Source: Bispira polyomma (taxonomy: Eukaryota). Taken from it: a DNA stretch of 64,000 nucleotides. The DNA is taken from positions 59,954,001 to 60,018,000 of the forward strand of contig OZ287754.1 of NCBI GenBank assembly GCA_965649765.1. Reading direction: 5' to 3'. Below the pieces are notes generated by a model, which saw only the letters and a program-made list of their open reading frames with translations, did no database searches and was not told where the DNA came from. The position numbers and the translations under genes are program-made. This document shows positions 32,623 through 54,899 of this stretch, piece by piece; position 1 is the first letter of the stretch, and each line of letters opens with the position of its first letter.

Positions 32623-32676
32623 CTCAGTGATCTGTGTCCCAAAATGGTCCAAACAAGTAGCCATTATTAATTTGAA
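32623..32676 (-). other. Candidate exon with Kozak ATG (MATCLDHFGTQITE)
   Basis: Acceptor ctctgttttcag|, ataATGG at 32664, donor GAG|gtgagt in phase 0. Confidence 0.5.
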
Positions 32677-33229
32677 CTGAAAACAGAGTAATGGATAATT
32701 AAAAACTACCAACCAAGTCTTGTCATACCTGTAGTATCCTGTAGCAGAACCAGTCCATCATTTTTACTAAAAATGAGCAATATTTACAAAGCATGGTAAG
32801 TGAGCACTGACTATAGTCCTTATAACTGGCAGGTATGGGGACAATGCTACTGTTACTTTAGTACTAGAGGTCATCAGGACAATATGCATTGTGTATGTAG
32901 TCACAAGTGCACATCAGCACACTATCAGTTGCACCAGCTAAATAAACCTGTTTATACTAGATATTAGAGATTGCTCTATTTTTTTTAAACGATTTATTGG
33001 AGAAGATTTCTGACCAATTCCGATCATGGACTTGAAATCTATTTTTACTGATAAACATTTGTTTCCATGCACGTTTGTTTATTTCTAGGATAATCTGGTA
33101 TATTTATACTATTAGGATAATTTTGGTAAAATAATCGACTGTTTTCTTGCACCGAGGAAAGCTTAGATGTTTGTCAAATCGTGCACTTATCAATTTTGAA
33201 CTGACTATATGTAAAGCGATGTATTTGAA

Positions 33230-33447
33230 TTTAGGGGTTTCTTACATCAGTTTCAACAGCTCAGGTCATATCACGGCAGATAAATTTAATAGACGAAACC
33301 CGGGTGTGGAAGCACTCTAAACAACCAACCTACAGAAAATACTGAACAAACTTTCCTATATAAAGGTCCAAACAGGATTCAAACTCACTTTGGGGAGGGG
33401 CCAGTGATTGTGAGCTGGAACTTCTAAGAAGTAGGCTTACACAGCCC
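33230..33447 (-). mobile_element. tRNA-derived SINE copy
   Basis: ttcaacagctcaggtcatatcacgg ... caggattcaaactcac (B box on minus strand) ... ggccagtgatt. Confidence 0.7.
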
Positions 33448-33539
33448 TTTGTTCTGTTCAGGCAAGTCATAAAATTTACCTAATAGGCTTTCAAACTTCT
33501 ACGTCAACAGGGAACTAGCTATGTCTAGTTGTAGAGCCA

Positions 33540-34386
33540 ATATATATACATTTTTACACCAAGATCAGACTGTAGGGGTATAAAAAGGCGAACTCAAGAG
33601 AACAGTATACAATGTAGACACACACAGTACACACACATCCCTCACAGATACACACCAGAACACACCCACCCTTTACAACATCAGCACCAGTGCTAGCAGA
33701 TTACACAGTCCGAACAGCCACCCAGGTCCCCCCATGTCAGACCACCCAGCCCTGTGAGGGTCAGGGGGGGGGGGCAGTGTGGGGTCGGTGTCTACAAGAC
33801 CTACTAACACACACCAGCTACATTGCTCATATTAATTACACTGAGCCAGGGACCTTGCGGTAGAAAGTGACAAAAGAGAACCACAGACATCCATACGTAA
33901 TCAGACGACCTCTCACACACTCAGCAACGACCCACTAGCAGCCAACACACAACCATACGTAGTCAGATGACCTCTCACACTCAGCAATGACCCACTAGCA
34001 GCAAACAACTACACATAGTCAGCAAAGACCCACCAGCAACACACAACCATACATAGTCTCTCACAGATGCACACACTCAGAAGTGACCCCAACCATGCAG
34101 CAGCAGACACTCGTGATTCCAGAACAGACACACACGGGTCAATTAAAAAGGGCTCACCACTGTAAGATTTGGAGTATCGTTGAATTTGTCCCAAAAGGAT
34201 ACATTTACATGTATTAGGAGTAACCATAAATGTGCAGTTTACTAACAGAAACACTACTGTACATTTCTGTGGGGTTTTTTTAACGTTAAAAACTATCACT
34301 TTAAGAGCCTTTGAAACTTGGACTACAAAATTCAGAAGTTTGAAAACTTGATCTAATGAAGTATTACAGTAGTGTTCGGTCTAATA

Positions 34387-34417
<31 letters not shown>

Positions 34418-35300
34418 AACAAAAACAAAAAAAAAAAAAACAACCCAAAGAAACAAACATTTATACAACATTAACATTCAATAAACCACAAAGGATTTTT
34501 AGTAATTCATGAAAACTGTTAAAGAGTACACATAAAATAGACTCAAGTGTTTGCAATTGTATTTTTAACTTTTGTTTATTTTAGGTTGATATTGTGTCTT
34601 TATTGTTTTTGTTTTTCAATTATTGATTAATATTTTTGTGATTATTTTTAAAATTATATCAAGTTTTTTGTTTAATTGGCTTGTTCTGTATATTAGTAAT
34701 AATCGTGTAATTTGTTGTGTGTGTATAGATATGTGTGTATAGATGTTTATGTATAAAATATGCATTTTAATGAGTAATTATTGATAGTTTATGTTTTTGC
34801 AATAAAACCAACACCAGGTATATAAATCAACAAGATGTATATGTATCCTTTTGGAAATTAAATGGGTATTGGATAGAATTGACATATTCCTTCTTTTTTA
34901 GACCATTTTAATAAGAGTGTGTAGCATCTTGAACCCTTTTTAAATGACCTATATCCCTTCTAGACAAGTGTGTAGCTCCAGTGTATATATATAGCTTTGT
35001 AATGCATGTGTGTGCTGTGTGTAGTGTACATGTAGAACCCCCCCACCCTCCCAACCTCCCTTTCCCACCTCACCTCCCCCCACTAGGGGGTGGCGTGATC
35101 TGGTCAATGGGTAAGACTTGACCAACTGCTGGTCTGTGTAACTGCTTTTTGTGCTGGTGTCATAAAGGAGAGGGTGTGTGTGTGTGTGTACTGTGAGGAA
35201 AGTACGAGTACTCTATGTGTGTATACTTTGTGTACTGCACCCTCTTGAGTTCTGTTATACCCCGCTACAAGCCAGTGTGGATATGTATACATACATAGAT
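33540..35300. repeat. ~1.8-kb degenerate inverted duplication (palindrome centred ~34550)
   Basis: Collinear inverted matches: ggggtataa..gaactcaagag (33575-33600) vs 35242-35263, 33600-33715 vs 35125-35238, ccaaaaggatacat (34191) vs atgtatccttttgg (34841). Confidence 0.7.
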
Positions 35301-36049
35301 TTATATATCAAGCTCACACTATCTCAAATCAGATCAAGTAAAGTTTTGGGGGGGGTTTATCGTCACTTTTCAACACGTCTATTCGTCAACTGTCAGGTTT
35401 GGGGCAGTTTCATTAGGTAGAACTAACTCAAAAGCTGAGGTGTTTGTTTTATGACTCAATATCTTCTTCAAAAGGTAACTCTAGTATATGCCTTACTGTA
35501 GGTTACTTTATGTAACTCTATGCATGCAAAGATTGTTTATAAAACATTTAGCATTGTATGGGGCTCATACTCCCCCAAAAAAGAAGAATTTCTATATCAA
35601 CATGGGAGCGACAGAATTCATAATTTGTGATAACAGTTCTATGCAGATACTGCTTCACAATGGTTGGACGAGTACACTTTCGGGTTGATCAATCATTGCT
35701 GACACCCCTACATCATGGTGACTCAGGTCATAATTTGATAATATATAAATCAATTTTGATTCAACCAAGTACCGCTGTATATTTTGAAATACAAACTCCT
35801 GGCCGATTGCATCATGACTGCAGCTGGTGGCGACTATAAATCCAGGTCTACACACTGGTGTGACGCGAGATGCTTTGTGTATCATTGGCGTGTAACCACA
35901 CACCTAATTCATCTAGCAATGTTTAAGTAACAATTTGGTACTCTGTGTAAACAAAATATGGGTGTAGGGATTTGGTGGTACATATCAAACATACCGACAG
36001 ACTTAATAGTACAGTGCTCACCCACAAAAAAACATGCTTCACCACTTAC

Positions 36050-36101
36050 CAGTCAGCTTGTGGTACCCTGGTGAAATCCCTGTATATGTACTACTATGCT
36101 T
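36050..36101 (-). other. Candidate exon of a downstream minus-strand transcript
   Basis: Acceptor ttcctccaattctacag| and donor CTG|gtaagt. Confidence 0.45.
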
Positions 36102-37649
36102 CTGTAGAATTGGAGGAATTTGCAAAAAAATTGTAAGGAATTCAACTTACTCAACACTAGCGGTGTACCCACTTGCACATAGGTGTGTACTAATAGAACA
36201 TTTGCAGAATTACAAACTATATGTATTACCAATCACCTCACCTTTTTAGCTGACCATTTGGCCCCACAGAGTGAGAAAGTGGAAAAATATAAATGTGTTT
36301 AAAAATGACCCTTAAAAGCTAAAATAGAAACGTGTGAATTCACCGATACACAGAAAGTATAGGAAAAAAACCCAACATGTAAACACTAACTTCAGAGGTA
36401 TTGTGTGTTGATAATTCTCTTTTAAAAACACAGAAAAATACTATCAGTTCAATTGGTTAAGTTTTAAATTCATTCTGTAATTATATTTTATAAAAATATT
36501 AATGCTGTAATATTATCAATTTAAAATATTATGCAATTCTATCAAGCATATTCACACTTCATCACAAATGTACATGTTTTTTTAAACTGACACTCATTGA
36601 TCACTTTTTTATATGTGGACTTAAGATTAAAAACAAATAAAACAGTGTACTTATACCCAAATCACTACACCTAGTAAGACAAACACATTTACTGCAAAAG
36701 ACCATCTTTGTGCACGTTCCATTTAGTCTTTGTGAATACTGAATTTTTTAAATTCTTAATCTACCAATGTTCAAAGTACTTATTCTTCAGATTGCCAACT
36801 ATTGACGCACAAACTACATGTTCTACAGTTACTGATCCAGGGCATTGAATAATCTTGATCCCTTAAGGACATTACAGTTCAGCAGTGAACAATCAGGCTG
36901 CTCAAGGAGCCTTTAGGACCTGATACTTCGCACAGACATTTTCAAAATGTATTGTTCTGGAGAGGAATTTAGTTGGGTTATATCTCATCACTTGCAACAG
37001 CTTAGCTTGTATCATGATTGCAGAAGTTGCCCTAAACAGCTCTATCTTCAACATTAAATTATGACATTAATCACTTAGGTATATTGCAGAACTGCAGTCA
37101 ACAATTAGTGTTTTTAGTACACAATACTCTGCACAAAGAAATTATAATAAAAACTTCTGGAGTTTCAAATACTTTGAAAATACTGTTAAATCATTCACAC
37201 AGATCACTAAATTTATTTTTATGATATCTGTTAACTATTCCTTCTTGAGAAATTTTTCAATCTAATTCCAATATTTCAAAGAGCAATGGCTGGCTGTTAA
37301 AACAGCACATACCTAAAGTATTGGACAACGTCAATCACAGGGTTACTAGAGTTTAATAAACGGAATACATTTTTAGAACATTTAGATTTAAAAATTTTAT
37401 GACACTTCTATCTCATTTAAAGTCTTTCAAATTAATCCTTAACAATACTCTTAAATAATGACCAAACTATTCACGTAATGTTTAATACTTATTTGAGTTT
37501 TATGTTGCTTTTAACATGTTAGAATATATGATGGTAGAAACCAGTTCTGAAACAACTGTGTAAACTACTGACAAGTACCAAACTTGTCCACATGAAGGAA
37601 CAAACAGAATTAAAATCCATATTGTTAAGTTACCAGTGATTATGAAGCC

Positions 37650-37825
37650 AACACTTCTAACCACTAGGCCACCACAGCACCTCAACTTACTTAAAGACAA
37701 ATAAACTCACTGTCTAACCACTAAGCTACCAAAGCACCTTAACTTACTCAAAGAGAAATAAACTCGTCTTACCACTAAGCCACCATATCACCTCAACTTA
37801 CTTGAAGACAAATAAACTCACTGTG
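37650..37825. repeat. 3 x ~57-bp repeat built on a SINE 5' end
   Basis: accacta.gc.acca..gcacctcaacttact..aagacaaataaactc x3. Confidence 0.8.
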
Positions 37826-38138
37826 TACACACAAAGCATCTACAATTTAAGACAATTATTTTTAAAGATCAGAATGATTTTTTGTTTTTTTCTATTCCCT
37901 GACAAAATATAATCAGTGTTATTTAATACATTGTATATCCATTGAATGACGTCATATCTACCGATTGATCTCCAGGTTTCTAAATCTTATTTTACTAATA
38001 ACCAACAGTAATGTCTATAATAAATTAGTAAGGCTATTAGTAAGGAAAACAATATCTTGATATGTTGGAGATGTTCCAAAAAGTCCAGATAATATGGGTC
38101 AAACATTTAAGATGTCCATATAATGTCAGGAACCTTAA

Positions 38139-38399
38139 CCCTTTTGCCACTGGGGGAAAACTATTGCTAGAAACTGAAGGAAATTTTTTGGATTATGGGT
38201 TACGAGATAGTTGGGGAGTCACTAAAACACACACCGCTGACAACTTCTGGAATTGAGTGGGAAGTCTGTTGTACTGACAATTTCCTATTGCGAGGAACTG
38301 AAGGAAAATACAATAATATTTTGGGGGTGTTGACTGCCTGCTGACAGACATAGGATCTGGGAGTAACAATTACCACTGGGTCACTAGGGGTTGAAAGGG
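38139..38399. mobile_element. piggyBac-like MITE, same family
   Basis: TTAA|cccttt ... aaaggg|TTAA with the same core. Confidence 0.6.
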
Positions 38400-38498
38400 T
38401 TAACCATAGGTGAACGAGATTTAGGTTCTGATCTGCATTATCATATACTTGTCAGATGAAAGATGACAATGTTGAAAAACTAAATTTAATATAGGACT

Positions 38499-38607
38499 GG
38501 GCCCGTATTCACGAAAGGACTTAGCCAGGTCTTAGGCTTAAATCTAGCACAAAAGTATACTGATTTAAGCCTAAGACCTGGCCGAGTCCCTTCGTGAATT
38601 TGGACCT
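38499..38607. mobile_element. Short palindromic MITE
   Basis: attcacgaaaggacttagccaggtcttaggcttaaatc pairs with gatttaagcctaagacctggccgagtcccttcgtgaat. Confidence 0.8.
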
Positions 38608-40818
38608 AGTTATTGTGTTCACAAGCTTGAATAGTTTTTTAAATTACACCCCAAAGACAAAATAACAGTACACAGCACTAAATCTGATTTCAAAAAAAAA
38701 AAAAAAAATAACTAAAAACTGGAAAAAATAATTAGAGATGAAACCATGCTTGAGAGCCTATGATTACTGAGGAGGGATTGGCAGCCATTTATGAATACTG
38801 GGTTTTGTAAGAAATGTAGGATTATGTCAGTGTTATTGTAGCTAATAAAAATTTATATAATTACACCCGAAAGAAAACAAAACATAACACCAAACCTCAT
38901 TAAATTCTTCAGAACACAAACCTTATTAAATTCTTTAAAGTGTAAAAAAAAATGTAATTTAACAAAAAATTTAATTTAAAATTTTTTTTTCCATAAAGAA
39001 AAAACAATGCTCAAGAGCCTATGATTCCTGAGGGGAGAGCACCCATTATTAAATACTCTTTGGGGCCAAATATATTATGACGTCCTGTACATGACCCACA
39101 ACAAAAGTGTCTAATTTCCAGGAAATAAAACCTAACATTTCAGGGCAGTAAACCTGATTAAATTAATCTAAGTGAAAAAAAAAATTAATATACAAAATAA
39201 TATAATTAGACTTACATTTAATAAAAAAAATATTTTTAGGGTGCTTGGCTGCTAGTAAACAACGTACGGGTCGAAAGGGTTAAAAAAAAAAAAGGTTTAA
39301 AACAATTCTAGGATGAAATAGTGCTCGAGAGCCTTATGATTACTGCAAAGGTATAGCAGCCATTAAAACCCACTGAAACAATTCAGTATACAGAAACTTT
39401 TTATGTAACACCAGACCTTACATATATTGGGGAAAACACGGTATACCAATATCAGAACCCTAACCATATCGACACAGTACATACAACTTGCATGAAATTT
39501 TCAGGGATTTTTTTTTTGTAAAAATATTCAACGGGAACTTGTCCCATCAATATTGCTGAAAAAGTGGACTAAATTTAGACACATTTTTTTTAAACTTCAA
39601 CAATACTATAACTATTCTGCAACTCATTATTTGCAAATTTAATTAATTATAAAAACCCTCAAAAGGATCTTCCTTAAACTTCACACACACTAATATTTGC
39701 TACAATCTTTTCACCTAACACTGATCATTGTGGACACGATTCATTAAATGTGCAGACACTTGGAAAAACTAAACTAAGGTACCGGTCTAAAATAACCGTT
39801 TAGCAACAGGCCTGAAAAAGGTTTATTTCATGAGACTGTGGTTCTTTACAGTCGAATCACAAAAGGACCAGCGGACAAGGCTCTACTTGGACATGATTTA
39901 CACAGGGTCGAGATCTGAAATCTAAGGCTTTTGTGGGACAACACTACAAATTGTTCTCCACCTATAAACAAGTAAATCTTTCTACTCAAAGGGGTTTTCA
40001 CTGTACTTAGGTTTTTCCCTTAAGTTGCACTTTTCTTTGCACAGAACACAAAACATTTGGTTATATAAATAAAAGTAAATGGAGAAAAACTCGCATGACC
40101 TTTTCCCGGGGGCGGTGACTTGATTTGAGGGGGTCTGGACAATGGGGCATGTACACAGTCTTCATTTCAACATAACAAGTGGTCACGACAAAACCACATG
40201 CAACTGTTATGAACACAAAAAAAAAGAAATCCAGTGATTCAAAAAAATGATTTTTTTTCCAAAGACGCAAATAAACATTAAAACACTACAATGCATTCAA
40301 ACAAAAGTCTAGGGTTATTTCGTTGGCGTTAAATATTAAATTTCAGATACCAAGGCGCTAAAACGGTTTGTTTTAAAAAAAAAATCTAGAGCATAAACAT
40401 GTTCAAAAAGAAACCGGATTTAAAGATATACATTTCTTTCCAGACATTTTGAAACAAATGCATATAAATATCAAAACAAAATAACAAGGTTCACCAGTAG
40501 GTTTTAATACCATTTAAAGGTTAAATAGTAGATGTCAAGAATAGGTAGATACATCAATTTGTATGTGACCTGTAATTTAATATCTGTAGGTGTCTGTACT
40601 ATAAGAACCCCTGACAAGCTGTAATAAGTGCTTCTGTTGTTTGTTAATGCAATGTGTAATATATATCTATACAAAGTCACAAGAAAATCATATTTCACAT
40701 CACAGAAGGCTACTCTTATAGAGCCCCCAGTTCAGGTTGTGTGCTGCCAGGCTGAACAGTGTCAAGAGGGTTAAACAGCCCTTCCAGGCCATTCACTTGA
40801 CATAGCATGTAAACGTCT

Positions 40819-42159
40819 CTAGCATTTGTAACGAGGCAAATACCCAAGGTTACAATGTGCCTCCAAACGTTCAAGACGTTTATCATGCCAACGGAGCCTT
40901 CCAGTATTATTCTGCACCAAACGTGTTGTGTTTGCCATAACATCTTTCACCCTGTACCAGAATGGACTATAGGGATCCTGATAACGTTCAGGCGACTTGC
41001 GGGAACGTTCTTCCCTGGTCATGCTCAGCCTGGCAGCTTTGGAGGGAGTGCCTTCCGCATTGGAGAACAGGTTGTCCAATTCGGAAGACCTCTTCCTCTT
41101 TTTAGGAGTTGTTTTAGAGGGTGGTGATGTTGACCCCTTAGAAGATGAGGGGGAGTTGGGGGAAGGTAGTTGATGCAAACCAAGCCCAGAAGGTCCAGGT
41201 CTGGACAGATCCGGCTCATCCACAACCAGCTCCCCAACCACACCAGGGAGCACCACAGAAGACAGCAATCCTGCCTCTAACCCTGACACCACACGAGATG
41301 GCTTAGGGGGAGACTTGATCACTGCCTTCACCTGCAGAGCAGCCTGGTCCTTCTCTGCAGTCTCCTCCACTTGTAAAGAAGGAGGGGACGTTAGAGAAGG
41401 CCCAACACGAGCCCCTAAACCAACCGATGACAAGGAGTCCTCGAACACCGAGTCACTCAGAGACAGCATAAGAGCCCCTAAATGATCCGATGACGAGTCC
41501 TCCTTGAACACCGACTGATCAAGTGACTCCTGATGGTGTGGGTAGGAATCCAGAGTGGATTCCGCATCTGACACAGACGCAGTGGGGGAGAGAGATGGAA
41601 GAGAAGTGGGGACAACCTCCCTATCCAACCTCACTACCTCACTGCCAGATAAATTTGCCCGAGGTTGTTCAGGTTGTTGTTGCTGTTGAGCCACGACTGG
41701 AGCCACGACTTGAGGTGGGACTGGAGCTGGGACTGGGACTTGAGGTGGGACTGGAGGTGGGACTGGGACTTGAGGTGGGACTGGAGGTGGGACTGGGACT
41801 TGAGGTGGGACTGGAGGTGGGACTGGGACTTGAGGTGGGACTGGAGGTGGGACTGGGACTTGAGGTGGGACTGGAGGTGGGACTGGGACTTGAGGTGGGA
41901 CTGGAGCTGGGACTGGGACTTGAGGTGGGACTGGAGCTGGGACTGGGACTTGAGGTGGGACTGGAGCTGGGACTGGGACTTGAGGTGGGACTGGAGCTGG
42001 GACTGGGACTTGAGGTGGGACTGGAGCTGGAGCTGGGACTGGAGGCGCGACACCAGCCGTGGCACGAGGGGCGACATTGCGGTGATGAGCGGCAACATTG
42101 CGGCGAGGACGGCGATTACCGCCTCGACCGCGCCTACGCGCCGTCGCATTGGCGAGAAG
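40819..42159 (-). CDS. Coding exon 3 (446 aa + stop): Arg-rich patch, 11 Pro/Val 10-aa repeats, polyQ, Ser/acidic disordered region, PKKRKR NLS, C-terminal helix
   Basis: Longest ORF in the window, GC-rich against an AT-rich background. Acceptor gtttctttttcag| at 42160 is in phase 0. The first 18 aa of the track ORF are intronic polypyrimidine sequence. Confidence 0.8.
   Translation of the reverse strand, partial: LLANATARRRGRGGNRRPRRNVAAHHRNVAPRATAGVAPPVPAPAPVPPQVPVPAPVPPQVPVPAPVPPQVPVPAPVPPQVPVPAPVPPQVPVPPPVPPQVPVPPPVPPQVPVPPPVPPQVPVPPPVPPQVPVPPPVPPQVPVPAPVPPQVVAPVVAQQQQQPEQPRANLSGSEVVRLDREVVPTSLPSLSPTASVSDAESTLDSYPHHQESLDQSVFKEDSSSDHLGALMLSLSDSVFEDSLSSVGLGARVGPSLTSPPSLQVEETAEKDQAALQVKAVIKSPPKPSRVVSGLEAGLLSSVVLPGVVGELVVDEPDLSRPGPSGLGLHQLPSPNSPSSSKGSTSPPSKTTPKKRKRSSELDNLFSNAEGTPSKAARLSMTREERSRKSPERYQDPYSPFWYRVKDVMANTTRLVQNNTGRLRWHDKRLERLEAHCNLGYLPRYKC
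41711..42040. repeat. 30-bp coding minisatellite, ~11 copies (PPQVPVP[A/P]PV)
   Basis: Unit tgaggtgggactgga(g/c)tgggactgggact repeated. It explains the overlapping spurious ORFs in other frames. Confidence 0.95.
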
Positions 42160-42685
42160 CTGAAAAAGAAACAAAAGATTCATTAAGTAGAGGTCATCGG
42201 AATACCACCACACACAAACCTTTTTTTTGGTGGCGCAATAAATGAAAACAAAAAAAATTGTATATAATAAAATACATAAGGTAATATATAGTATTTATAC
42301 AATCAGGATATGTGCAGTATGATCTTTTATTATCCAAACTTTTAAAATCCTGTACACAGGATTCTGATTTGGCAAAAAAATAAAGGGTTATGCTGTATAT
42401 ATTGTAATTCTTTTTAAATCTATAAATTAAAAAAACCAAGTTACACAAATTAAAATTGTAACTAAAATTATGTATTCTGGTTTATTACTTTTTAATAGGG
42501 AAAAAACTATTGGTTTAATGTCTATTTTCAACACGTTTGGTGTTGAAAGCGCCAGGACTGTTTTACTAATGGAGGAAATTAAAACAGGGTTGTCAAGGTT
42601 TTTCGTCCTCGGTGCAAAACTCAGCCTACTATCAAGCCCAACTGGCAATCTTTTTCTGAACATACACAATGTCAATCTAACAAGG

Positions 42686-43030
42686 ATGGGTTTTTAAGCA
42701 GCTGTCAACAGCTCAGATCATATTGCAATGGCCAGATTTAATCATGGCAGAAACCAGTGCAGAAGCCACTGTAAACCACTGACGTGTGGCAAACTCCTGA
42801 CAAACTTTCCCATTTGATGAAACAAAACAAGGTGGGAATTTGAATTTGTTAGCTTTTACTTGGTTTTCAACATCATTGGTCATATTGTGATGGCCAGGAT
42901 TAGTGGTGGAGGAAACCAGTGGGGAAAACTTTCTCAAATGGAGGAGTCTGTGGGATTTGATCCACAGAGGTAAGAGACCAGTGATTTGTTAAAAGCAGAT
43001 GCTTCTAACCACCAGGCCACCACCACGGCC
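42686..43030 (-). mobile_element. Two tandem partial tRNA-SINE copies in intron 2 of the orphan gene
   Basis: caacagctcagatcatatt, ggtggaggaaacc, caaactttccc, ttctaaccaccaggccacc. Confidence 0.7.
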
Positions 43031-43176
43031 AGTCCCCAACAAGGTGGGAGGTGAGTGTGTAACTACCACTACACAACTGAAAGACCCCACTCCTCTCTCA
43101 GAGACCTCATCCCTTCCTCAAAGACCACCCCATGCCCCCTGATTTTTCAGAGCACTCCTAAAACTAATAAACTTAC

Positions 43177-43218
43177 CGTTGGATCGAATCCATACACTTG
43201 GAAAGACTTTTTCAGGAT
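43177..43218 (-). CDS. Coding exon 2 (42-nt phase 0-0 exon, ILKKSFQVYGFDPT)
   Basis: Acceptor ttcttcttgttctgtacag| and consensus donor ACG|gtaagt. Keeps the frame between exons 1 and 3. Confidence 0.7.
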
Positions 43219-44243
43219 CTGTACAGAACAAGAAGAACAGCCATGTGTTAGCAGATTATAGTCCTTTATGTGTAGATGTAGACCACATGCGGTGCCAACA
43301 ATTATACTTGCCGAAATAAACTGGCCCTGGGAGTCAAGGGGGTGAACTGTAGAAAAAAGTCTTAAAAGTATTGCGGGTGAAATATATTCTGTAAATATCG
43401 TAGGTAATGTCTTGTGCGCGCAATGTACAGAATTGTGTGTCAACCGCTATATATCGAAACTGAGCTGAGACATGACACTTCATACTACTTCACATAGACC
43501 ACACAATACACATTTAAGAGGTGATGAGCAACATTTATACACAGCACCGTTTGAGACCCATCAAAACATAACTTAGGACGATGCCATACCAAGCCGTGTC
43601 ATTTCTATATGTAATGATGATGTTGCTGTGAAATACTTTGCTGCTAGTTGCAAGAGTATTTCTCCACCACAATGTAAAAATACAGAATAACATTAATACA
43701 AATGCACTATAAAAATGTAAAACAGTCTACAAAAATTATAGTTCAAAGAAAATTGGCTGTTAAAACTCTTCTTATACAGCATCATTCACTACTTGAATTA
43801 AAATGAATGATTAATGTCTGGGTTAGATCGCATTAGTAAAAGGCAAACATTTATGTGCTTAGTGGAGGCCTTGATATCAAAATACATCCCCATGGCTGGT
43901 ATTCTCAAGCATGCTTATTGTTTTATTTTATTTTCCATCAATTGGATTGGCTAGAAACATTTGTTTCAAACAATCTGATTGGCTAAGCTTTAGAAAAAGT
44001 TTTAGAAGAAGCCAAGCCAGTAGTGGTAGTGATTTGATTATTGTATTGGGCGATTTTGTCGGTCATATTAATATTTTGTCACTACACATTTATAGTGGGG
44101 GAGGTTTATATAGACAATCGTGGATTTACCCAAAAACTCTGACCCAAAAGCTACAAACAACTAGGATGATAGCAAACGTGGTAATAATATAAAAATAAAT
44201 TCATATGTAAACCCACAAAACATAGCTTAGATATTAACTGATA

Positions 44244-44420
44244 CAGTTAAACCCCCTTTAAAAGTGGAACTATGATAATGCAATTACCTGTGAAGTAGAA
44301 GTTACTTTTTAAGATCCCACAGCTATATTTCTAATTAATAATTTAACCTGATAAGTAGAATTGTTAAATAAAACAGATTTCGACAGTCCCTTCTAGTTTG
44401 ACTTAAACAGGGTTCCACTG
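44244..44420. mobile_element. pogo-like MITE
   Basis: ta|cagttaaacccc ... agggttccactg|ta. Confidence 0.65.
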
Positions 44421-44594
44421 TATTTATATAGATATATACATTAATTATTAAAGAAAATTTCATTTTCAGTTATTTACTTTATATTTACAGCTTAGGGTCA
44501 TGTCACGATGGGCATTTTAACGACAAACTTTTCACACGTGAAGGAACGAATAGGATGTCGAAAATCCACATATTTTGGCAGGAGGACAGTCATT

Positions 44595-44945
44595 GTGTGA
44601 GGCAGGCACTACTACTAATCATCAGACCATATCAGGCCCCCTTGTGGTATTGTACCGTGTGAAGCAGACACTACTACTAACCATCAGGCCCCCTTGTGGT
44701 ATTGTATCGTGTGAAGCAGACACTACTACTAACCATCAGCCCACATCAGGCCCCCTTGTGGTATTGCACCATGTGAAGCAGGCACTACTAGTAACTATCA
44801 GGCCCCCTTGTGGTATTGTACCGTGTGAAGCAGGCACTACTACTAATCATCAGGCCCCATCAGGCCCCCTTGTGGTTTTGTACCGTGTGAAGCAGACACT
44901 ACTACTAATCATCAGGCCCCATCAGGCCCCCTTGTGGTATTGTAT
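44595..44945. repeat. ~52-62-bp minisatellite, ~6 copies
   Basis: atcaggcccccttgtggtattgtaccgtgtgaagcag(a/g)cactactactaa. Confidence 0.92.
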
Positions 44946-45096
44946 TAATTCAATAGAGACTTAGAAAATATACCACAACAAAAGATTTTATACTGTCCCT
45001 TCTGTTTTTGTATCGGGGGATCAATGTGATGGCTTCTATATATAGAGGGAGTGAGACTGTGGGGCGGGACTCATCAGGCATATACTCTGTACTTAC

Positions 45097-45225
45097 TTCC
45101 ACCAGGAGAGCGGATCGAGACTTGTAGGGGGAACGTCTCGGGTACCTGCTGCCGCCAAAAGTCGCCTGGTCAAAGCTGGCATCGTACCAATGCAAAAGGG
45201 TGAGAAAAGTTATAAAGCCTGCCAT
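45097..45225 (-). CDS. Coding exon 1 of spliced orphan Pro-rich/NLS protein gene (MAGFITFLTLLHWYDASFDQATFGGSRYPRRSPYKSRSALLVE)
   Basis: Minus strand: acceptor gtttttcttagtattgtag| at 45239, strong Kozak acaaccATGG at 45225, donor GAA|gtaagt at 45096. 129 nt, phase 0. Exon including 13-nt UTR is 45097-45238. Confidence 0.75.
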
Positions 45226-45560
45226 GGTTGTCAAAGATCTACAATACTAAGAAAAACAAAACACAAAGTGGCGTCAGTTAAAACAAAAGATGGCAGGAGA
45301 GTTTTACTATACATGAAATGGTGAAAAACATGAGAATATAAGGTAGAATAAAGATAGAATTGAATAAAAGGAATAGAATTGAGACTTGACAACAAAAAAA
45401 AAAAAGACTATTACAAAATAGATCTATGTGTGGAGCTTTCACGGATTTCTGAAAATGACAAAAACCAACCACAACCAAGAAGGCAAAGGAATTTTATACA
45501 GTTTTTGTTTCTTGAAATAAAAAGGGAAGAGTGATGAGATGCACACACACACAAAGTATA

Positions 45561-45836
45561 CAGTAGGAAAAACTCTTATCCAAGCAAGTTTGGGGTGGCT
45601 ACAGGTAAGACACGTCTATATCCCTGAAAAACGGGATTACATATTGGAATTCACTGTTGAAAGCTGTATTAAAAAGAATGGTGTCACAAGTGTGTAGTTG
45701 TATTTCCATGTTGCTGCTAAGGATTTCCACACACACACCTATATTTGAGTTTGAGTGAGTTATTTTAGGCAGGAGTGTATTCTGAGGATACACCAGCCCC
45801 TGAAAAAGTTTGGATAATAAAGAGGTTCTCTACTCT
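45561..45836. mobile_element. pogo-like MITE (degenerate)
   Basis: ta|cagtagg..ctcttatccaa ... ttggataataaagagg..ctact. Confidence 0.5.
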
Positions 45837-45837
45837 A

Positions 45838-46505
45838 TAGTATTATAGTACCTGTTGGATATAGTATTATAGTACCTGTTGGATATAGTATTATAGTACC
45901 TGTTGGATATAGTATTATAGTACCTGTTGGATATAGTATTATAGTACCTGTTGGATATAGTATTATAGTACCTGTTGGATATAGTATTATAGTACCTGTT
46001 GGATATAGTATTATAGTACCTGTTGGATATAGTATTATAGTACCTGTTGGATATAGTATTATAGTACATGTTGGATATAGTATTATAGTACATGTTGGAT
46101 ATAGTATTATAGTACATGTTGGATATAGTATTATAGTACCTGTTGGATATAGTATTATAGTACCTGTTGGATATAGTATTATAGTACCTGTTGGATATAG
46201 TATTATAGTACCTGTTGGATATAGTATTATAGTACCTGTTGGATATAGTATTATAGTACCTGTTGGATATAGTATTATAGTACCTGTTGGATATAGTATT
46301 ATAGTACCTGTTGGATATAGTACTATAGTACCTGTTGGATATAGTACTATAGTACCTGTTGGATATAGTACTATAGTACCTGTTGGATATAGTACTATAG
46401 TACCTGTTGGATATAGTACTATAGTACCTGTTGGATATAGTATTATAGTACGTGTTGGATATAGTATTATAGTACGTGTTGGATATAGTATTATAGTACC
46501 TGTTA
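45838..46505. repeat. 24-bp minisatellite, ~28 copies
   Basis: Unit tattatagtacctgttggatatag with blocks of single-base variants. Confidence 0.97.
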
Positions 46506-46555
46506 CATATAACATCCACTCAAATATCCCCTCCTGCAGTATATACTGCTTGAAT
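46500..46555 (-). other. Candidate 5'UTR exon of the orphan gene
   Basis: Strong acceptor (T-rich tract ending ttcacag|) and weak donor AACAG|gtacta. Contains an in-frame TGA upstream of the 45225 ATG. Confidence 0.5.
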
Positions 46556-47289
46556 CTGTGAAAAAAAAAGAAAGTGAATCAGACGCTATACAATTCAGGC
46601 AATACACAATCTACTTTCTGAAGCAGCACTAGTGCTAGTACAGTGGGTTGTTCTCAAATTAGGAAAAACAGTAGAAAAGCCAGGGTTTAGTGTAACTGAA
46701 AAGTGCTTAAAGTGTTCCAGATAGAGTTATTTTGTTTTTAATCACACTGGGTTCTTTTTGCTAAAGGGGAACATCAGTTTGAGTTTTCATTAAAATATTT
46801 GACTTAAAACTGAACTCTTTAAAGCCATGAATATGAGGCTTGAAAAAACAGGGAAATAATAAAGTTTGGATGGTAATCCTAACAATCCTCATACTAGAAT
46901 AGAGAAGTAGTATTTGCTTGTCTTGTTTTGGGCATAATATATATATATTCGTACGACACTACTATTTTTTTTATAGAAGTTTACTGACTGATGGTCTTTA
47001 ACATGCATTGCAAAATTTATTGTTTTTTGTTACTATTGCCGAGCGAAATTTCAGTGATACAAGCCAGTTGAATTGTCGCACACTTTCTCCAGCCCACACA
47101 CACCCACACTGCTGCAAAATAACCCTCAACGACCCTCTATTGTTTCTCATCCAAAACCCTCCCCAGGGTTTGAACACACACTGTAAAAACAGTTCTGTCA
47201 TTAGTAGGTGCAGCCAGTTGTCTGTGTGGGGAGTCTGTGATGTGTTCATCATACCCACTGGATCTTCAGGGCCTCCATATATCACTTAT

Positions 47290-47591
47290 ACCCTGGATAA
47301 TACCTCCAGGCCGTTATATAAATATGGCGACTGTTTCTGTACACACACACACTGTATATCATATCTCTCCTACCAGACGTTGTTTTCTATCCCAATCGTA
47401 ATTTCTTTTTCGCTTTGATGCAGCATGTAGCTGAAAGGATCCAAACGGCTTTCTTGGTGTTTTTGTGCTTGATAATATACGTCCCATATCTGTGCATCCC
47501 AGCCGCGCCCCTTTTTTTGTCAGCCACTTGTCACACCTTGCGTCAGCAGACACTGTTTCTTGATGCGATCAGCCAGATCATTTCAACAGAC
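47290..47591 (-). other. Candidate upstream non-coding exon (3' boundary uncertain)
   Basis: Acceptor ctttatttttgtag| at 47592, followed by a GC-richer block with stops in all frames. Several weak donors near 47290-47375. Confidence 0.35.
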
Positions 47592-47649
47592 CTACAAAAA
47601 TAAAGAGTACAGTACTGTAGTTGAGTACTATTATGTGCATAAATATATA

Positions 47650-48159
47650 TGTTACACCCAATTCGTGAAATGGGCAATTTTGTAAGTTTTAAGTTACACA
47701 TTTCATAAAATAGGCAATCTTATGAAGAAAAAAATATTTCAAAAAATTATTCAAGTAACAATAAAATGTTTTTCTGCGAAGGAATGCTTTCTATGCAAGG
47801 GAATGTTTACTTTACGTTGTGGAAGTAGTTTCATTTCGTACGTATAAATTATAGAAATGTTAAAATATAATAAAATCTAAAAAAAAACAGGCACATATTT
47901 GAATCACTGTCTGTAGAAAAGTTAAATTTTCGTACATTTACAGTCAAACCCCTTTATGTAGAACTCTGTTAAGTCATTTTCCCTGTTATGGGGACAACTT
48001 TAGACCTTTTTTTAGGCCTTTTCATTTGAAATCTACCGTGTTTCGGGTCCCTTGAGGTTCGACTAAAAGGGGGTCTACTGTACTTGCAATATTGTGAAAT
48101 AAGGAGAGAATTCGTTGCCCATTTCACAAAATGGGCAATTTCATGGATTAGGTGCAACA
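47650..48159. mobile_element. TIR MITE with 8-bp TSD, containing a nested pogo-like MITE
   Basis: tgttacacccaattcgtgaaat / atttcatggattaggtgcaaca. TSD AATATATA on both sides. Confidence 0.7.
47941..48080. mobile_element. pogo-like MITE
   Basis: ta|cagtcaaacccctt ... aagggggtctactg|ta. Confidence 0.7.
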
Positions 48160-48738
48160 AATATATACATTACAGTAGATATGCATGTTTACTGATTTGG
48201 TCAGTAAATACGCATAATCCCTTTAAAATTGGATTTTAGGTCCAGTAAGTTTTACTTTTTTGCAAGTTCTTAATGAATCTATCTATATTTAAGTCACTTT
48301 ATTTAAGCACATTACATTAACAGTTATACTATATTGTCTATCCTAAGTGTATGTCATACTTACAGTCCAATTTATTACACCAATAATAATGTTACAATTA
48401 CTCTTCAAAATCTTTACCCCCAGAAAGTGACTTGAAATAGAGTTGTTCATATGCATGACATTTTCTAATACATCACATGTGATGCGGTATGATAAACTCT
48501 GATAATAAAGGATACCAATAAATTACTTAGATTATTACAGAAAATATGTATAAATGGTGGATAACATTGGTAAGTTCATTATTTTTTTTTTCACAAGATA
48601 AACTAGCAGCACACCAGCTGTTGCATTTAAGCTTAGATTTAAAACACTTTCATCTATTGTTTTAGCACAGATTTTTTTTCATAATTCATTTTCCACTACT
48701 TCTTTAAACTATTATAAATTTAACCGAAGAGATCAATA

Positions 48739-49883
48739 TTATTATTATTATCTTAGATTTTAACGCGCTTTATTGATGCTAGGCATCTTCTAAAGCGCAA
48801 CAGCAGAATCATTAGTCCAATCATTAAGTCCATGGACATTGCAAAGTTGTAAGGAAGGAGGTGGGAGCGTGCACGAGGAAAGCTAAGGTGGGTAGGCAAG
48901 ATTAAAAAGATAGGTTTTAAGCTTTTTCCTAAAACCGATCAGTGTGTCAACTGATCTGAGGTCAACTGGGAGACTGTTCCATAACTGTTGAGCTGCAGTG
49001 GAGAACGCTCTGAAACCCGCCTTTCTGATTGGTCTGACCGAAGTGAGAGTCTGTTGCCTCTCTTGCGGTTACTGAAGGAAAGAAGGGAGGCAAGGTAGGG
49101 TGGCTGTTGAGTGACTACGGCCTTAAAAGTGGTAACGTGAATCTTAAACAAAATTCGAGATTTAATGGGCAGCCAGTGTAATTTTTTGAGGTAAGGAGTG
49201 ACGTCTGTGCGACAACCCAGGCGAAAAATTACCCTTAGCATAGGTAGTTTTGGATGGACTGGAGCTTTTTAATGTGTGACTTGTTTGCTCCGTACAAGAA
49301 GAGAATTGCAGTAGTTGAGGCGGCTAATTACAAGGGCATTTGCCATAGTTATCGCTGTGTCCATGGACAAGTGGTTTCGTATTCTTTTGATGTCGCGTAT
49401 GTGGTAATAGCAGGAGCGACAAATGTTGGCAATATGAGTATCGAACGAAAAAGCTGAATCAAAAGTGATACCCAGGTTTTTAGCATTTTCGAAAGGTAGT
49501 ATGTTTCCCATCTCCCTGCTGGGAAAAGACAAAGATTTTAGGAGTTCACCGTTTTTCTTGTTTCCTATGAGGATGAATTCTGTTTTGTCAGGGTTAAGCT
49601 TTAGTTTGGAGTAGTTCATTCATGCCTGGACATCAGACAGTCTGCAAGTAGGTCTATGTTAGTATTTGCATTTTGTGGATTGAGGGAGAGATAGACTTGA
49701 GTGTCATCTGCATACATGTGATGTTTTATATCGTGTTTATTGATGACAGTGCTGAGAGGATGTGTATAAAGGGTGAAAAGTAGAGGGCCAAGGATGGATC
49801 CCTGGGGTACTCCATATGGTAGCTTTATGGAAGATGATAGATGATCATCTAGTTTAATTCTTTGTGCCCTAAGATACTAAGTA
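48739..49883 (-). mobile_element. 5'-truncated L2/CR1-group LINE (RT C-terminal half + 3'UTR)
   Basis: [64 protein letters not shown]. Ends aataaagcgcgttaaaa plus an (AAT)n tail. Confidence 0.93.
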
Positions 49884-51487
49884 TATGATACTAGATACCC
49901 AGTAAATACATTAAATAATAGATAAGATAAGAATAGAGTGGCCCATGTGGGCCACATCGTCAGCTGTCATGAAGGGGAGGGACTGTAAGTGTGGATAGGT
50001 AGTTGTTTGTTCGTGTGACAGGATTGAATTGTGGCGTGTCAAGGACCTTTGTTTTGTTAAAGAGGGCGAAGGCAAGATTTTAGTTGTGTTGTGAAGTGGG
50101 ATATGAAGTGATGTGGTAGATGGAGATGTAAATGATGTTAGCGGATTATGCGGCGAGTGTTTATTGTTTGTCTAAACATAAGGTTAACGTGTTATGGTCG
50201 GAGAAGGTGCAAGAAATGGTTGAGGGGTGTAGTGGGAGGGGCGAGAAGCAAAATTTGATGAGGGTGACGTAGCAAGATGTTGTGGTAGATTGCTGTTGTG
50301 CTTGGAAGGCGACATTCATACGTTGTAGCAATGTTTTATTTTGTGGTGATTGTATATTGATGTTGAAATCACCAAGGACAATGTACCTGTTAGTATTGTA
50401 AGACCGAAGGGGGGGTTGTATTTGTTGTGTAAATTTTTTATGTCAGGTGTGGTACAGTTATTTGCTACAGTAATTTTACAGTATGAGAACAATGACAATT
50501 GGAGTAGAAGGTAGTTGTTGTAATTGTACAATCCTGTATTAAAATGTTGGGGTGTTGAAATGATCATGGGACAACGCTATGCATAAATTCAGTATATAAA
50601 TGATTAATCCATGCGGAGGTCTAGTTGTGTGGCGATGATGGGTTTAGTTGTTTCTGATGCATGTAAAATGGTCGATGTGGTATGATTGTGGGTCGGGAGG
50701 TTGAAGTCTGGATTCACATATGGTAATGATGTCAGCGTCAGTGGAGATGATAAATGATGCTTTAAAGACTGTTCAAGTGAGTTATTTTGCACTGATAGTT
50801 TTGGTGAAATAGGTAAACAAATGAGAATTGGTGAGGTTTGAAGTTCCATGTCCTTGGATGTCAGGTAAACAAATGAGAATTGGTGATGTTTGAAGTTCCA
50901 TGTCCTTGGGTGTCAAAGGAACATTCTTGTCTCCTATTGGTGTACTCTGTAATGGTGACTTTATGGAACCATCGGTGAATGTAACCTCTTTATTCACCTG
51001 TATTGAGTGATTTGTCTATTTTAGAATGAGGACAGTTGGATTAAACCCACAGACACTACAAATAACATTCAGATCCAGCAGTTGCTCCTTAAATTTACTG
51101 TCAACTGATTCAACTTCATAGACTTGCATTGCACATTCACAGTGTGCATTGTATTATGTTGCTCATTGCATGTTTGAAGATACTGGATAAACAGCATGAA
51201 CAAAAATAATATCCACATTTTTTTTTCAGGAATTGATAGTTATTTGTCATGGGCTCTTCCACACAGAATAGATATTTAAATATATCCTTTTGAGAATCCA
51301 TTGTTTATTACTTAAATGTTGCAACAAAAAACACTTAATATCAGTTAATAATCTTTGCTTGTTACACCTGTTATGTTTTTACAAAACTTAAAGATTTGAG
51401 TGATTTATAAACACCCTCCTTGGCTGGAAATAGCTATATGTTATATCTCTGTTGTACACATTTTAATATAATGAAATAGATGAATTT

Positions 51488-53140
51488 AAACTAGTGGGGT
51501 TACAGACCCCAAAAAGGCGGGTTGCGCAATTGTTATCAGGGATAGGGTCCAGCAACAAATTTCAAGTTGTTTTTTGGAATGGGCCCAAATGCAATCCCAA
51601 CCAAGCTATTGACATAATGCACCTCTACACCAAATTTGGTGATGATAGCTGCAAAACTTTTCTTTGAAATGAGTGGAAACCCTTTTCAAGATGGCAGTCA
51701 CAGTGGCCATCTTGTTTTCTCGGAATGGGCCCACCTACAATCCCAACCAAGCCATGACATGATACACCTGCACAACAATTTGTTGATGACAGCTGCAATA
51801 CTTTTCCTTTAAATGAGCAAAAACCCTTTTCATGATGGCTGACATGGCGGCCAGCTTGTTTTTTAGAATGGGCCCAAAAACAATCCCAACCAAGCTATTG
51901 CCAAGCTACGGCTATCCTCGACTGACCTTGAAGGAGGGGCCAAAGGTTAAACCTGACCACATCAGAAAACTCCCACTCCATGATTTACTATAGGTTGGTT
52001 TAACATCTCAAAACTGTAGGACAATAAAAAGCGAGTTATAAGCACATTTAAGTTTAGCTACCCTTGTATGACCTTGACGGAGGGGCCAAAGTTAAAATCT
52101 AACCACACCAGAAGACTCCTAGCCCATGATTTCCTATAGGTTGGTTTCACATCTCAAAACTGTAGGACCAATAATATGCAATTGTAGACACTTTTAAGTT
52201 TAGCTACCCTTGTCTGACCTTGATTGAAGCGCCGAAGGTCAAATCTGACCACATAAGATTCCCAGCCCATGACTACCTATAAGTTGGTTTCACATTGCAA
52301 ACCTCTAGGATTAATAATAAGCGAGTTAAAAGCACTTTTAAGTTTGGCTATCCTCGTTTGACCTTTAATTAGGGGCCCAACGTCAAATCTGACCACATTA
52401 GAAGATTCCCAGCCCATGAGTTACTGTAGGTAGGCTTCACATTCCACATAATTATAAGCAGTTTTAAGTTTAACTACCCTCGTCTGGCCTTGACGGAGGT
52501 GCTCAAGGTCAAATCTGACCACATCAGAAGATTCCCAGCCCATGATTACCTACAAGTTGGTTTCACATTGCAAACCTCTAGGACCGATAATAAGGGCGTT
52601 ATAAGCACTTTATAGTTTGGCTATCCTCGTTTGACCTTGAATTAGGGGCCCAATGTCAAACCTGACCACCTTAGAAGATTCCCAGCCCATGATTTCCTAT
52701 AGGTAGGCTTCACATGCCAAACCTCTAGGACCAATAATAGGGAAGATATAGGCACTTTTTAAGTCCGTCACTTTGGGTACTTTGGAACTTCGTAAATGAC
52801 CTTGAATGAAGAGCTTCAAGGTCAAATGTCTGGATGCTTGTAGAGGACATATATTTCTGTTATATATTTCACCTATGAAGAGATTCAACCTTCTAGTTAC
52901 GAAAACCAGTCAGTAGAAAATGGTAGATAATTTTCAAAGAAATGGCCATGGCGACCATCTTGTTTTTCAGAATGAAGCTATTTTCAGTCGCAAGGAAGCT
53001 TACCTCCCAATAAAGATATCCTGCAAATTTGGTGAAGCTAGCTGGTCTAGTTTTCTGCAGAGAGTGTTAACGGAGAAAATCTCTACGGCGTCATAGCGAA
53101 CGCTAAACTAAAAGTATCCACCGGATCGGTGTATACAATT
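51488..53140 (+). mobile_element. HINE-like element with two expanded internal satellite arrays
   Basis: ~3 copies of a ~140-bp gaatgggccca..caatcccaaccaagc unit (51570-51900), then ~7 copies of the ~115-bp aaggtcaaatctgaccac unit (51920-52760). 3' hairpin gtatccaccggatcggtgtatac. Confidence 0.8.
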
Positions 53141-53646
53141 AATAGGCCTGTTACTAATCTAAACCAATGTTTTATCCAACTATAGAACAGTCAGGAAACC
53201 ACAAACATCACCATCCACATTGACAATAGAAGATGGATTAGCTATGACCACAAAAGCCACTAAAGCAACCTCAAAACAGTCACAGTTAAATAAATCTCTT
53301 ACTAATCAAAGTCCATGTTTAATCCCATTATATAACAGTTAGGAAACCACATATCGCCATCCCTATAGACAATAAAAAGTACTAGTAATAGCACACTAAA
53401 CAAATCTATCACACTTACATTAATCCCTTGGTAATCAAAGCCAATGTTTAATTCAATTGCAGATTATTTTTTTTTATTAAACTGACACTATTCTATGCAC
53501 AAACATTTTACTAATCACAAATGATATACATAAATTAATAATTTTAGTCACACTTATTTGAATCCTTTAAAAATCTAAATCACAAAAGGTAAATATAATA
53601 GCACTTAGCCAAAAGGGCTTATAAGTTACAAGCTTATAAATATAAT

Positions 53647-54172
53647 TAGAGTAGTGCTTTGCAAATGAAAGGAAATTGTTTTAGCACTCTGTGTTGAACG
53701 CAGAAATTCAAATTGACCGCCAAAAATCGCGAGATTGCGATTTTGATAAAATTAAAAAAAAAAAAAAAAATTATTAAAAAAAAAATTTGAAAAAAATTTA
53801 ATTTGAGTGCATATATATGTAAATGTAAAATAAATGTAATGTATACCCTGTAGGCCCAAATTTCAGCCGAAATCGCTCTATCTCGCACCATTTCCGAGAT
53901 ATTAGGGATTTTTCATTTGTATCGTTTTGAAAAATCTTAACGTTTAATTAATCGTTAATAAGTCGGCCATTTTGTATCGGATCACTTCCAAAAAAGTTAA
54001 TGTTGTCCAGACATCTATATAAGAAAGCTACTTGCCAAATTTCATGAGAATAGGTAAAGCGCTTTTTAAGTTCTCATCCGGCACATTTAGAAGACCTGTT
54101 TTTGGTCATATGACTTCTCTGATTGGTGAAAATGTGATACAAACAAGCGTCCCTTGCAGGACGTGCTTAATA
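53647..54172 (+). mobile_element. Probable HINE-like element of another family
   Basis: CpG-rich body (atcgctctatctcgcaccatttccgagat) and 3' stem-loop aagcgtcccttgcaggacgtgctt followed by aata. Confidence 0.5.
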
Positions 54173-54178
54173 CACGTA

Positions 54179-54363
54179 CAGTAGAACCTCTATTATCGGA
54201 CCATCTATTATCCAAATATTCAATTTTGCGAAATCAATTTCACTCTCTTAAACTTATATTTTATTATTGTTTTATAATAAATGCCACTTCTATTTTATGG
54301 ACCTTCTATTATCCAAACAAATTGTCACTCTCCTGAGATGTCCGTAAAATAGAGGTTCTACAG
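54179..54363. mobile_element. pogo-like MITE
   Basis: gtagaacctctattatcggac / gtccgtaaaatagaggttctac with TA flanks. Confidence 0.75.
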
Positions 54364-54899
54364 TATATCAATAGTTAGAAAAAATTTATTTGTTTCCAGG
54401 GGGTACAAAAATTTGGCAAGCCCCCCTTGCAATATTTTGTATCCCCACACACTTTTTTTTTGCACTAAACTGGTACACTTAGTTCAATTATAATTGTTAC
54501 CAAACCCCCAAAAATATTTACTGCTATAAAATCATCTATTTCTGACCCAATATGGTTTATTCATATTGTGACACACATAGCCTCTGTAATTTTTATCCTT
54601 TTAAATACTCCAGTTAACCTGTATGCAATATATTGGGTTTACCATATATTTTTTTTTTCAGCTTAGTACAGTAAGGAATCTAAAATTTGCTCCTGTATCT
54701 AAAATTTGCCACCCCTAAAATTTAAGCCAAATAAATAAAAACTGGCGATAAATATCTGGTAAGGAAGGCAAATTAGTCATAAAAATCTCAATTTAAGCAA
54801 ATATTAATGACAATTCTACCCAAAACACAAATTTTTTTAGGTGGCGAATTTTAGATGGTGGGAAATTTTACCCATCAACCAAAGTATGTATATATATAT

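Follow-up and report, generated by a model that had tools for sequence, protein, structure and literature searches.

A multi-copy gene inside a 75–125 kb dispersed repeated unit of the Bispira polyomma genome

A long reading frame lies on the minus strand of the window (the whole 64,000-nt stretch of Bispira polyomma DNA analysed here), surrounded by decayed transposons. Is it a gene, and how did it come to stand there intact?

Gene model and predicted protein

Three exons with GT/AG boundaries connect in phase 0 to give a protein of 503 aa (43 + 14 + 446 aa), reproducing the model of the preliminary description. The first coding exon (45097..45238, minus strand) starts its 43 codons at an ATG at 45225, exon 2 (43177..43218, minus strand) adds 14 aa in phase 0, and exon 3 (40819..42159, minus strand) encodes 446 aa followed by TAG, with an RGG/basic stretch, a Pro/Val repeat, a Ser/acidic linker, an NLS-like motif and a predicted coiled coil. 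An acceptor lies just before the ATG, 13 nt away in the window copy and 13 or 17 nt among copies; the gap is thus read as 5' UTR, implying an unseen upstream exon. In three sequencing runs the introns were covered and no splice joint was seen among the joints listed, an observation with no bearing on expression. The strong Kozak context claimed for the start codon is found in the window copy (ACAACCATGG) but is copy-specific and does not hold in general.

Among the 12 other subfamily-1 copies examined, the splice sites of exons 2 and 3 were retained in all 12, and the ATG and exon-1 donor in 10. The three-exon layout is also present in a second subfamily, about 70% alike in DNA. Because the splice sites are retained and the layout recurs, the model is more than chance, and judged by its sequence the reading frame is a real gene of no known family.

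That no family had been recognised agrees with the searches. Pfam returned 0 families for three pieces of the window and only sub-threshold coiled-coil matches for subfamily 2 and the outside homologue P0002; the best PDB sequence match had an E of 0.18, a fold search gave 0 matches, and viral and metagenome contigs contained no relative. Word-index homologue searches, within the length ranges searched, returned nothing or P0002 alone. P0002 belongs to a distant homologue pair in another assembly, so the earlier label of orphan is not strictly correct. P0001 also matched (E 2e-4), but it has the look of a bacterial chemotaxis receptor, and the match was discarded as chance similarity of coiled coils.

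The N-terminal 57 aa may form a SAP/LEM-like helix-loop-helix. The 11 Pro/Val decapeptides noted earlier are encoded by a 30-bp tandem repeat (41707..42045, minus strand) of 11.3 copies, which varies in length and unit among gene copies and keeps the frame in the intact ones. The NLS-like motif PKKRKR (41089..41106, minus strand) opens a block conserved in subfamily 2 and P0002. S/T-P sites number 11 in the 503-aa protein, seven of them within residues 390–455. The earlier account of the NLS-like motif, the disordered middle and the C-terminal helix stands; the polyQ tract comes down to 5 Q. The predicted helix (40855..40965, minus strand) contains an RhxxhE motif (RLERLE, 40878-40861) and is followed by about 11 aa to the end of the protein.

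When three copies of the last 56 aa were predicted together, the self-association score was 0.73 (0.02 for the best control), with runs agreeing on at least 86% of contacts, a pLDDT of at least 76 and an R75–E80 contact between chains; the three copies were imposed, which differs from the calibration on two copies, and a coiled coil may score well simply because the predictor knows such folds. In that calibration, 21 of 30 solved microbial pairs reached the mark (0 of 23 single chains), as did 17 of 29 eukaryotic pairs (0 of 30 single chains). Among animal pairs, it was reached by seven of 16, and by one of seven lacking an older solved relative. The helix is best described as a predicted self-associating coiled coil, with a trimer as its likely state.

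Copies of the gene and the unit around them

The gene is multi-copy, which the first reading overlooked. A genome search located 25 gene-bearing loci on 11 contigs: 22 matches at 19 loci for the first subfamily and six further loci for the second. Gene models were intact in 14 of the 19 reconstructed copies (10/13 in subfamily 1, 4/6 in subfamily 2). Each gene copy examined sits in a colinear unit of decayed transposons, 75–125 kb long, with identities of 80–99% among members of one subfamily and about 70% across the two. The whole window (1..64000) lies inside this giant dispersed unit; in window coordinates, its copy extends from about −1,450 (or −13,400, common to one other copy) to about 88,480. 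The gene thus owes its presence at about 25 sites on 11 chromosomes to its position inside a block of about 100 kb that was copied around the genome. The preliminary description had placed it intact in a transposon graveyard; the window gene is indeed intact, but the graveyard is a single block of about 100 kb that was duplicated together with it, and the best reading of the gene is accordingly as cargo of this block.

A 75/112-bp tandem array (865..1223), with more units just left of the window, is private to the left-end region of the unit in both subfamilies. All 36 exact genome matches of a 21-mer from this array lay beside the left piece of the unit, at 17 loci. The left piece was found at at least 34 loci, 11 of these 34 having no gene nearby, so the unit has also been copied without the gene. 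At the right end, a 19-mer had 10 genome matches, every one at the right end of a unit, and in the six of these ends that were read, five unrelated flanks begin at one same base in a TA run. Internally, copies hold 4–12 TA runs.

We see a roughly even chance that the unit is a giant non-autonomous mobile element, its cargo being a predicted nuclear, likely trimeric coiled-coil adaptor. As introns and nested transposons travel along, the unit would be copied as DNA, either through an enzyme acting in trans or through repair copying with a TA microsatellite as its start or end point, at times taking neighbouring host DNA along. In the protein, long disordered linkers would connect three small N-terminal modules, and its action on germ-line chromatin would keep gene-bearing copies propagating.

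Observations on the ends count against a mobile element: the base-exact right end is confined to class-B copies; the window copy, like others, terminates at other points, mostly away from TA runs; and the left ends are ragged and nested, although in several copies the reading did not extend to the true end. C11-type copies have TA runs at both junctions; their left terminus was rejected as a family terminus, being the end of a MITE of about 620 bp (196 genome matches) that is internal in C14 copies, and so marks a single event. Copies near chromosome starts have more than 30 kb in common past the terminus at 99%, a case of ordinary segmental duplication. The terminal 1.8 kb of the unit resembles a gene cluster on C14 and may therefore be captured host DNA.

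ORF scans and cross-subfamily tblastn detected no mobilising enzyme inside the unit, a search that genes with short exons could escape. None of the 18 genome matches to DUF3504 (Crypton-type) lay at the unit. A Harbinger relic was rejected as mobiliser because it is a nested insertion present in subfamily 2 only. No terminal inverted or direct repeat was found, the terminal 23-mer having no second copy at up to four mismatches in the fetched DNA; the right end formed no terminal hairpin (z = 0.92); and no target duplication was seen. Canonical Helitron ends read TC and CTRR; the right end of the unit reads neither.

Some of these results suit a possible, if doubtful, account by core-duplicon-type serial segmental duplication, in which a selected host gene family seeds repair-driven duplications that drag changing flanks along and the TA run is a mere fragile site. 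The gene-bearing unit is indeed a core within interspersed duplications with variable flanks, the pattern that defines core duplicons, and the flanks accrete in a nested manner: a sulfotransferase piece is common to the window and C6 copies only, a PC4-like remnant occurs in C10/C12 copies only, and the terminal gene in class B only. The lack of a detected enzyme or terminal repeats fits as well, as does the coding tandem repeat, which varies among paralogues as it does in NPIP (PMC7419210). Against such serial duplication stand the single base met by five unrelated flanks, the private left-end array of both subfamilies and the dispersal of copies across 11 contigs. With at least 34 loci, the left piece is also commoner than the gene (25 loci); the most-duplicated core is therefore not the gene.

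It is highly improbable, and largely disfavoured, that the unit is what remains of an endogenous large DNA virus or Polinton that degenerated until a single gene was left. The size of the unit is virus-like and Polinton pieces lie near three copies, but these pieces are mutually different and outside the common core; as flanking sequences they were also rejected as mobilisers. The unit contains no viral ORFs (polymerase, capsid, integrase, ATPase), the gene has spliceosomal introns, and no relative was found among viral contigs.

Selection and the C-terminal cassette

Purifying selection acts on both ends of the protein. Across residues 1–57, thus including the first coding exon, nine copies showed eight replacement and 19 silent variants (pN/pS 0.13, p = 4e-7), and three copies of the class-A C-terminus showed three and eight, respectively; the disordered middle was near neutral (pN/pS 0.78). 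C4, C8a, C9 and C10a were left out of these variant counts. In the codon comparison, from which C9 was left out because a frameshift broke the codon mapping, dN was below dS in the end regions of the protein and exceeded it in no region tested. In non-coding DNA, 1051 of 1330 gaps were not multiples of three; in exon 3 outside its repeat, all 16 gaps of six class-A copies were. These counts are not independent, as every copy was compared with the window copy. Private variants in exons 1–2 (four replacement, eight silent) were likewise purified, a point in favour of a selected host gene family of the core-duplicon type. Private and shared variants did not differ significantly in a test for post-insertion decay (Fisher p 0.22–0.69; C10a, C7:63.0 and C12:31.29 left out).

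At the C-terminus (40819..41200, minus strand), divergence between class A and class B is far above that of the flanks. The last 120 codons or so have a history older than the rest of the gene, which suggests that they are probably a swapped cassette. Since silent sites have diverged too, the view that positive selection by itself accounts for the A/B difference was rejected. At least five C-terminal variants were distinguished (A, B, two relics at C12:31.29 Mb, and subfamily 2). If the unit is a mobile element, exchange of the cassette could alter which paralogues co-assemble.

Variants of this kind would also be expected if the gene selfishly distorted transmission, as a poison-antidote system or meiotic driver that spreads with its unit and whose cassettes set self and non-self, by analogy with wtf, Spok and Dox; this reading of the gene, which fits either copying mode, is quite unlikely. 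It draws on a lineage-restricted, dispersed multi-copy gene that is intact amid decaying surroundings, on the number of C-terminal variants, and on exons that diverge more between subfamilies (0.38–0.49) than the adjacent introns (0.19–0.34). It is opposed by the absence of any identified second gene or alternative start, and by the lack of a tested region with dN above dS.

Relation to known systems

Fungi are known to harbour cargo-carrying mobile units of about 100 kb (Starships), Teratorn of fish comprises virus fusions of 41–182 kb, and core duplicons have been described from primates. Our literature search, with most subscription papers and Repbase reports outside its coverage, found no description of the present unit. 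It is a tentative and rather unlikely proposal that the unit typifies an undescribed class of animal selfish elements of about 100 kb, which would insert at TA microsatellites, have no terminal repeats and a private subterminal array, and encode one trimeric nuclear protein, array-binding or transmission-distorting, with swappable self/non-self C-terminal cassettes.

Giant non-autonomous DNA transposons of Ectocarpus (KDZ, EnSpm, Sola-1) reach about 30 kb and belong to known transposase superfamilies (PMC12477816). Like them, the unit has nested transposon insertions fixed among copies and, as in some of their families, a gene without any transposase homology; unlike them, it measures 75–125 kb, resides in an animal-sized genome and has no terminal inverted repeat. 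With primate LCR16a/NPIP (PMC7419210) it has in common interspersed copies, variable flanking duplications and a lineage-restricted gene that maintains its reading frame and contains a coding tandem repeat. No sequence relation was found, however; the unit common to the copies far exceeds the 20-kb NPIP core and has a base-exact end at a TA run (five flanks), and the selection found on the end regions of the protein is purifying rather than positive.

CryptonV elements, which are transposons with a tyrosine recombinase, use microsatellites as insertion sites (PMC8869645). The unit resembles them in an end that lacks terminal repeats and borders a microsatellite, seen in 5/5 distinct class-B flanks, whereas it is far larger, has no DUF3504-type recombinase and has one defined end, other classes ending elsewhere. 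The lack of an observed target duplication, the apparent capture of host flanks and an array near one end recall Helitrons and HINEs (PMC6431247, PMC7492417), whose reviewed maximum is about 39 kb; in contrast, the unit has no RepHel and, at the right end examined, no terminal hairpin or subterminal inverted repeats. The protein resembles LINE-1 ORF1p (PMC5381506) in architecture only, with a disordered basic region followed by a predicted coiled coil with an RhxxhE motif, whereas the window gene has introns, lacks an RRM or C-terminal domain and is not followed by ORF2.

The gene-poor unit has expanded as two old subfamilies in a genome of invertebrate type and combines a single selected novel gene with an end that is exact to the base. 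This makes it a tractable system in which to ask whether the segment itself drives such duplications. By a rough estimate, some 25 copies of about 100 kb amount to some 2 Mb of dispersed homology.

A three-exon gene family and its distant homologue

The minus-strand gene of the window (45225–40819) comprises exons at 45225–45097, 43218–43177 and 42159–40819, which, as the preliminary description had proposed, join in phase 0 at GT/AG sites (43 + 14 + 446 aa) into a 503-aa protein with 19% proline. A splice acceptor lies 13 nt upstream of the ATG; most other copies have 17 nt between the two, so the stretch is untranslated, which implies a further exon upstream. A 24-bp minisatellite of 28 copies (45836–46511) lies close upstream of the gene.

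The gene belongs to a novel family sitting within a giant dispersed unit. Searching the Bispira polyomma genome (1.035 Gb) with the last 93 aa yielded 22 matches at 19 loci; those with the C-terminal type of the window copy (class A) were 78–100% identical, and those of class B, together with relics on contig C12, 53–62%. Exon 1 yielded 18 matches. A DNA search with the gene's 3' flank revealed a second subfamily with identical exon borders (40 + 14 aa, then exon 3), whose exon 3 is open over 361–365 aa at five of six loci and terminates in a longer coiled coil. Together the two subfamilies occupy at least 25 loci, spread over 11 contigs. Gene models were intact in 10 of the 13 subfamily-1 copies examined and in four of six subfamily-2 copies; defects in broken copies were exon-1 insertion, exon-2 frameshift, exon-1 loss or rearrangement. 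A collapsed copy at C12:31.28–31.30 Mb (stretches L131 and L132) holds a diverged exon 1 and tandemly arranged relics of the 3' end of the gene with two more C-terminal variants (31.29 Mb).

The gene had been described as a lineage-specific orphan. A profile search covering 1.84 billion representatives produced two hits. One was a coiled coil matched by chance; the other, P0002, from another assembly, shares 38% identity over 68 aa with subfamily 2 and has an RGG stretch, acidic/Pro linker, KKRRR-SE motif and coiled coil in the order of the family protein; all 12 of its matches in the B. polyomma genome were gene-family members. P0002 and a 96%-alike twin each come from a 795,509-bp ENA contig, which appears to be the same for both. 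The family is thus very rare yet not limited to the B. polyomma genome.

Selection and a proposed C-terminal cassette

The gene is under selection. Relative to the window copy, frame-breaking gaps occurred at 9.8 per kb in non-coding DNA, and none of 16 gaps in the non-repeat exon 3 of six class-A copies was frame-breaking. The pN/pS ratio was 0.13 for residues 1–57 (nine intact copies) and 0.10 for the class-A C-terminus (three copies); values for the protein middle (0.78) and the class-B C-terminus (0.35) were not significant, nor was the difference between private and shared variants.

Classes A and B diverge by 0.17–0.43 per site at 41200–40800, versus mostly 0.00–0.13 in the flanks to either side. 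Silent differences numbered 24/67 in the C-terminal part versus 9/83 and 15/123 elsewhere, and the A–B branch was about 0.35 long there and about 0.013 in the middle. The simplest reading of these comparisons is that a cassette (41200–40819) was exchanged with an older paralogue.

The C-terminal 93 aa were predicted as a disordered stretch followed by one 37-residue helix (mean pLDDT 66, with the helix above that mean). Near the end, both subfamilies carry an RhxxhE motif, which often, though not invariably, goes with parallel trimers (PMC5381506). The last 56 aa, modelled as three copies (a number imposed by us), scored 0.73 (best control 0.02), although a passing score may reflect memory; at least 86% of contacts were common between runs, with pLDDT of at least 76. 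In calibration, 21 of 30 microbial solved pairs reached the score mark, as did 17 of 29 eukaryotic pairs (animals 7/16); no single chain did (0 of 23 microbial, 0 of 30 eukaryotic). Among eukaryotic cases without an older solved relative, only one of seven passed. The protein is predicted to be a nuclear oligomer. Speculatively, it might aid propagation, bind the array at the unit's left end, or drive; that the family is chiefly a transmission distorter seems improbable to us.

The giant unit and its ends

From each of 12 subfamily-1 copies 30 kb was first taken, and all 12 proved colinear with the window across most of that length; extended copies had 75–125 kb in common. The window copy of the unit spans about −1,450 to 88,480 in window coordinates, and the unit covers ~94 kb on contig C1 and ~122 kb on C11; the subfamily-2 unit is colinear with it at about 70% identity. 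The unit is made up of minisatellites and decayed pieces of LINEs, SINEs, MITEs and recombinase-type retrotransposons, many of them common to several copies. One LINE reverse-transcriptase fragment lies at 27834–28226. Besides nested transposon pieces, ORF scans (≥150 aa) and cross-subfamily tblastn found no second conserved gene, although genes built of short exons could be overlooked. Descent of the unit from a virus appears very remote.

The left-end region carries a 75/112-bp tandem array private to the unit: a 21-mer from it had 36 exact genome matches at 17 loci, all adjoining the unit's left piece. That piece was present at at least 34 loci (39 of 61 candidates scored), with the gene nearby at 23 and not at the other 11. 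Outward of the array, copies have nested extensions in common that differ from one to another; a 12-kb extension holding a sulfotransferase piece (L065:3474–4031, minus strand; PF00685, E 3e-42) is common only to the window and C6 copies. At C11-type junctions, a ~620-bp MITE (L224:3060–3930; G-rich terminal inverted repeats, TA target, 196 genome matches) is preceded by an inverted partial MITE copy and stuttered TA runs. The leftmost ~9 kb of the unit have a near-exact second copy (window 123–8595 and L067/L066) 22.7 kb left of the original.

The right terminus is exact in five copies with unrelated flanks, which share the same last base, followed by a TA run, and each of the 10 genome occurrences of the terminal 19-mer lies there (backwards control, 1). 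Neither an inverted or direct partner of the 19-mer nor a hairpin was found at this terminus. The window, C6, C4, C12 and subfamily-2 copies end at other points, the window copy inside a short TA run and the others not. That the unit is a giant non-autonomous element we consider an even chance. It would have been copied as DNA, mobilised in trans or via repair at TA runs, with flanking DNA captured during copying. Copies near the C11 and C1 starts share >30 kb past the terminus at 99%; the unit has therefore been multiplied by plain segmental duplication as well. That it is a core duplicon is a possible, if somewhat doubtful, reading. At C8:0.94–1.04 Mb, near a chromosome start, tandem amplification has left the right terminus three times at 45.9-kb spacing.

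Neighbouring genes and Polinton-like elements

The class-B right terminus carries a small membrane-protein-like ORF (L217:2045–2413, minus strand) with a hydrophobic stretch and helical tail; of the five copies read, one keeps it open over 122 aa. It had no Pfam match, and its relatives form a local gene cluster at C14:24.71–24.75 Mb.

About 56 kb right of the window copy's end lies a Polinton/Maverick-like element (L108:1400–10000 and L109:1–3500; C7:60.099–60.112 Mb), with long open frames that we labelled by eye as resembling DNA polymerase, integrase, capsid, protease, ATPase, BIR and PC4-like proteins. On the left side of the C4 copy, histone H3/H4 genes are joined to a fragment of a Polinton-like end that carries a PC4-like ORF (L102:7000–9800).
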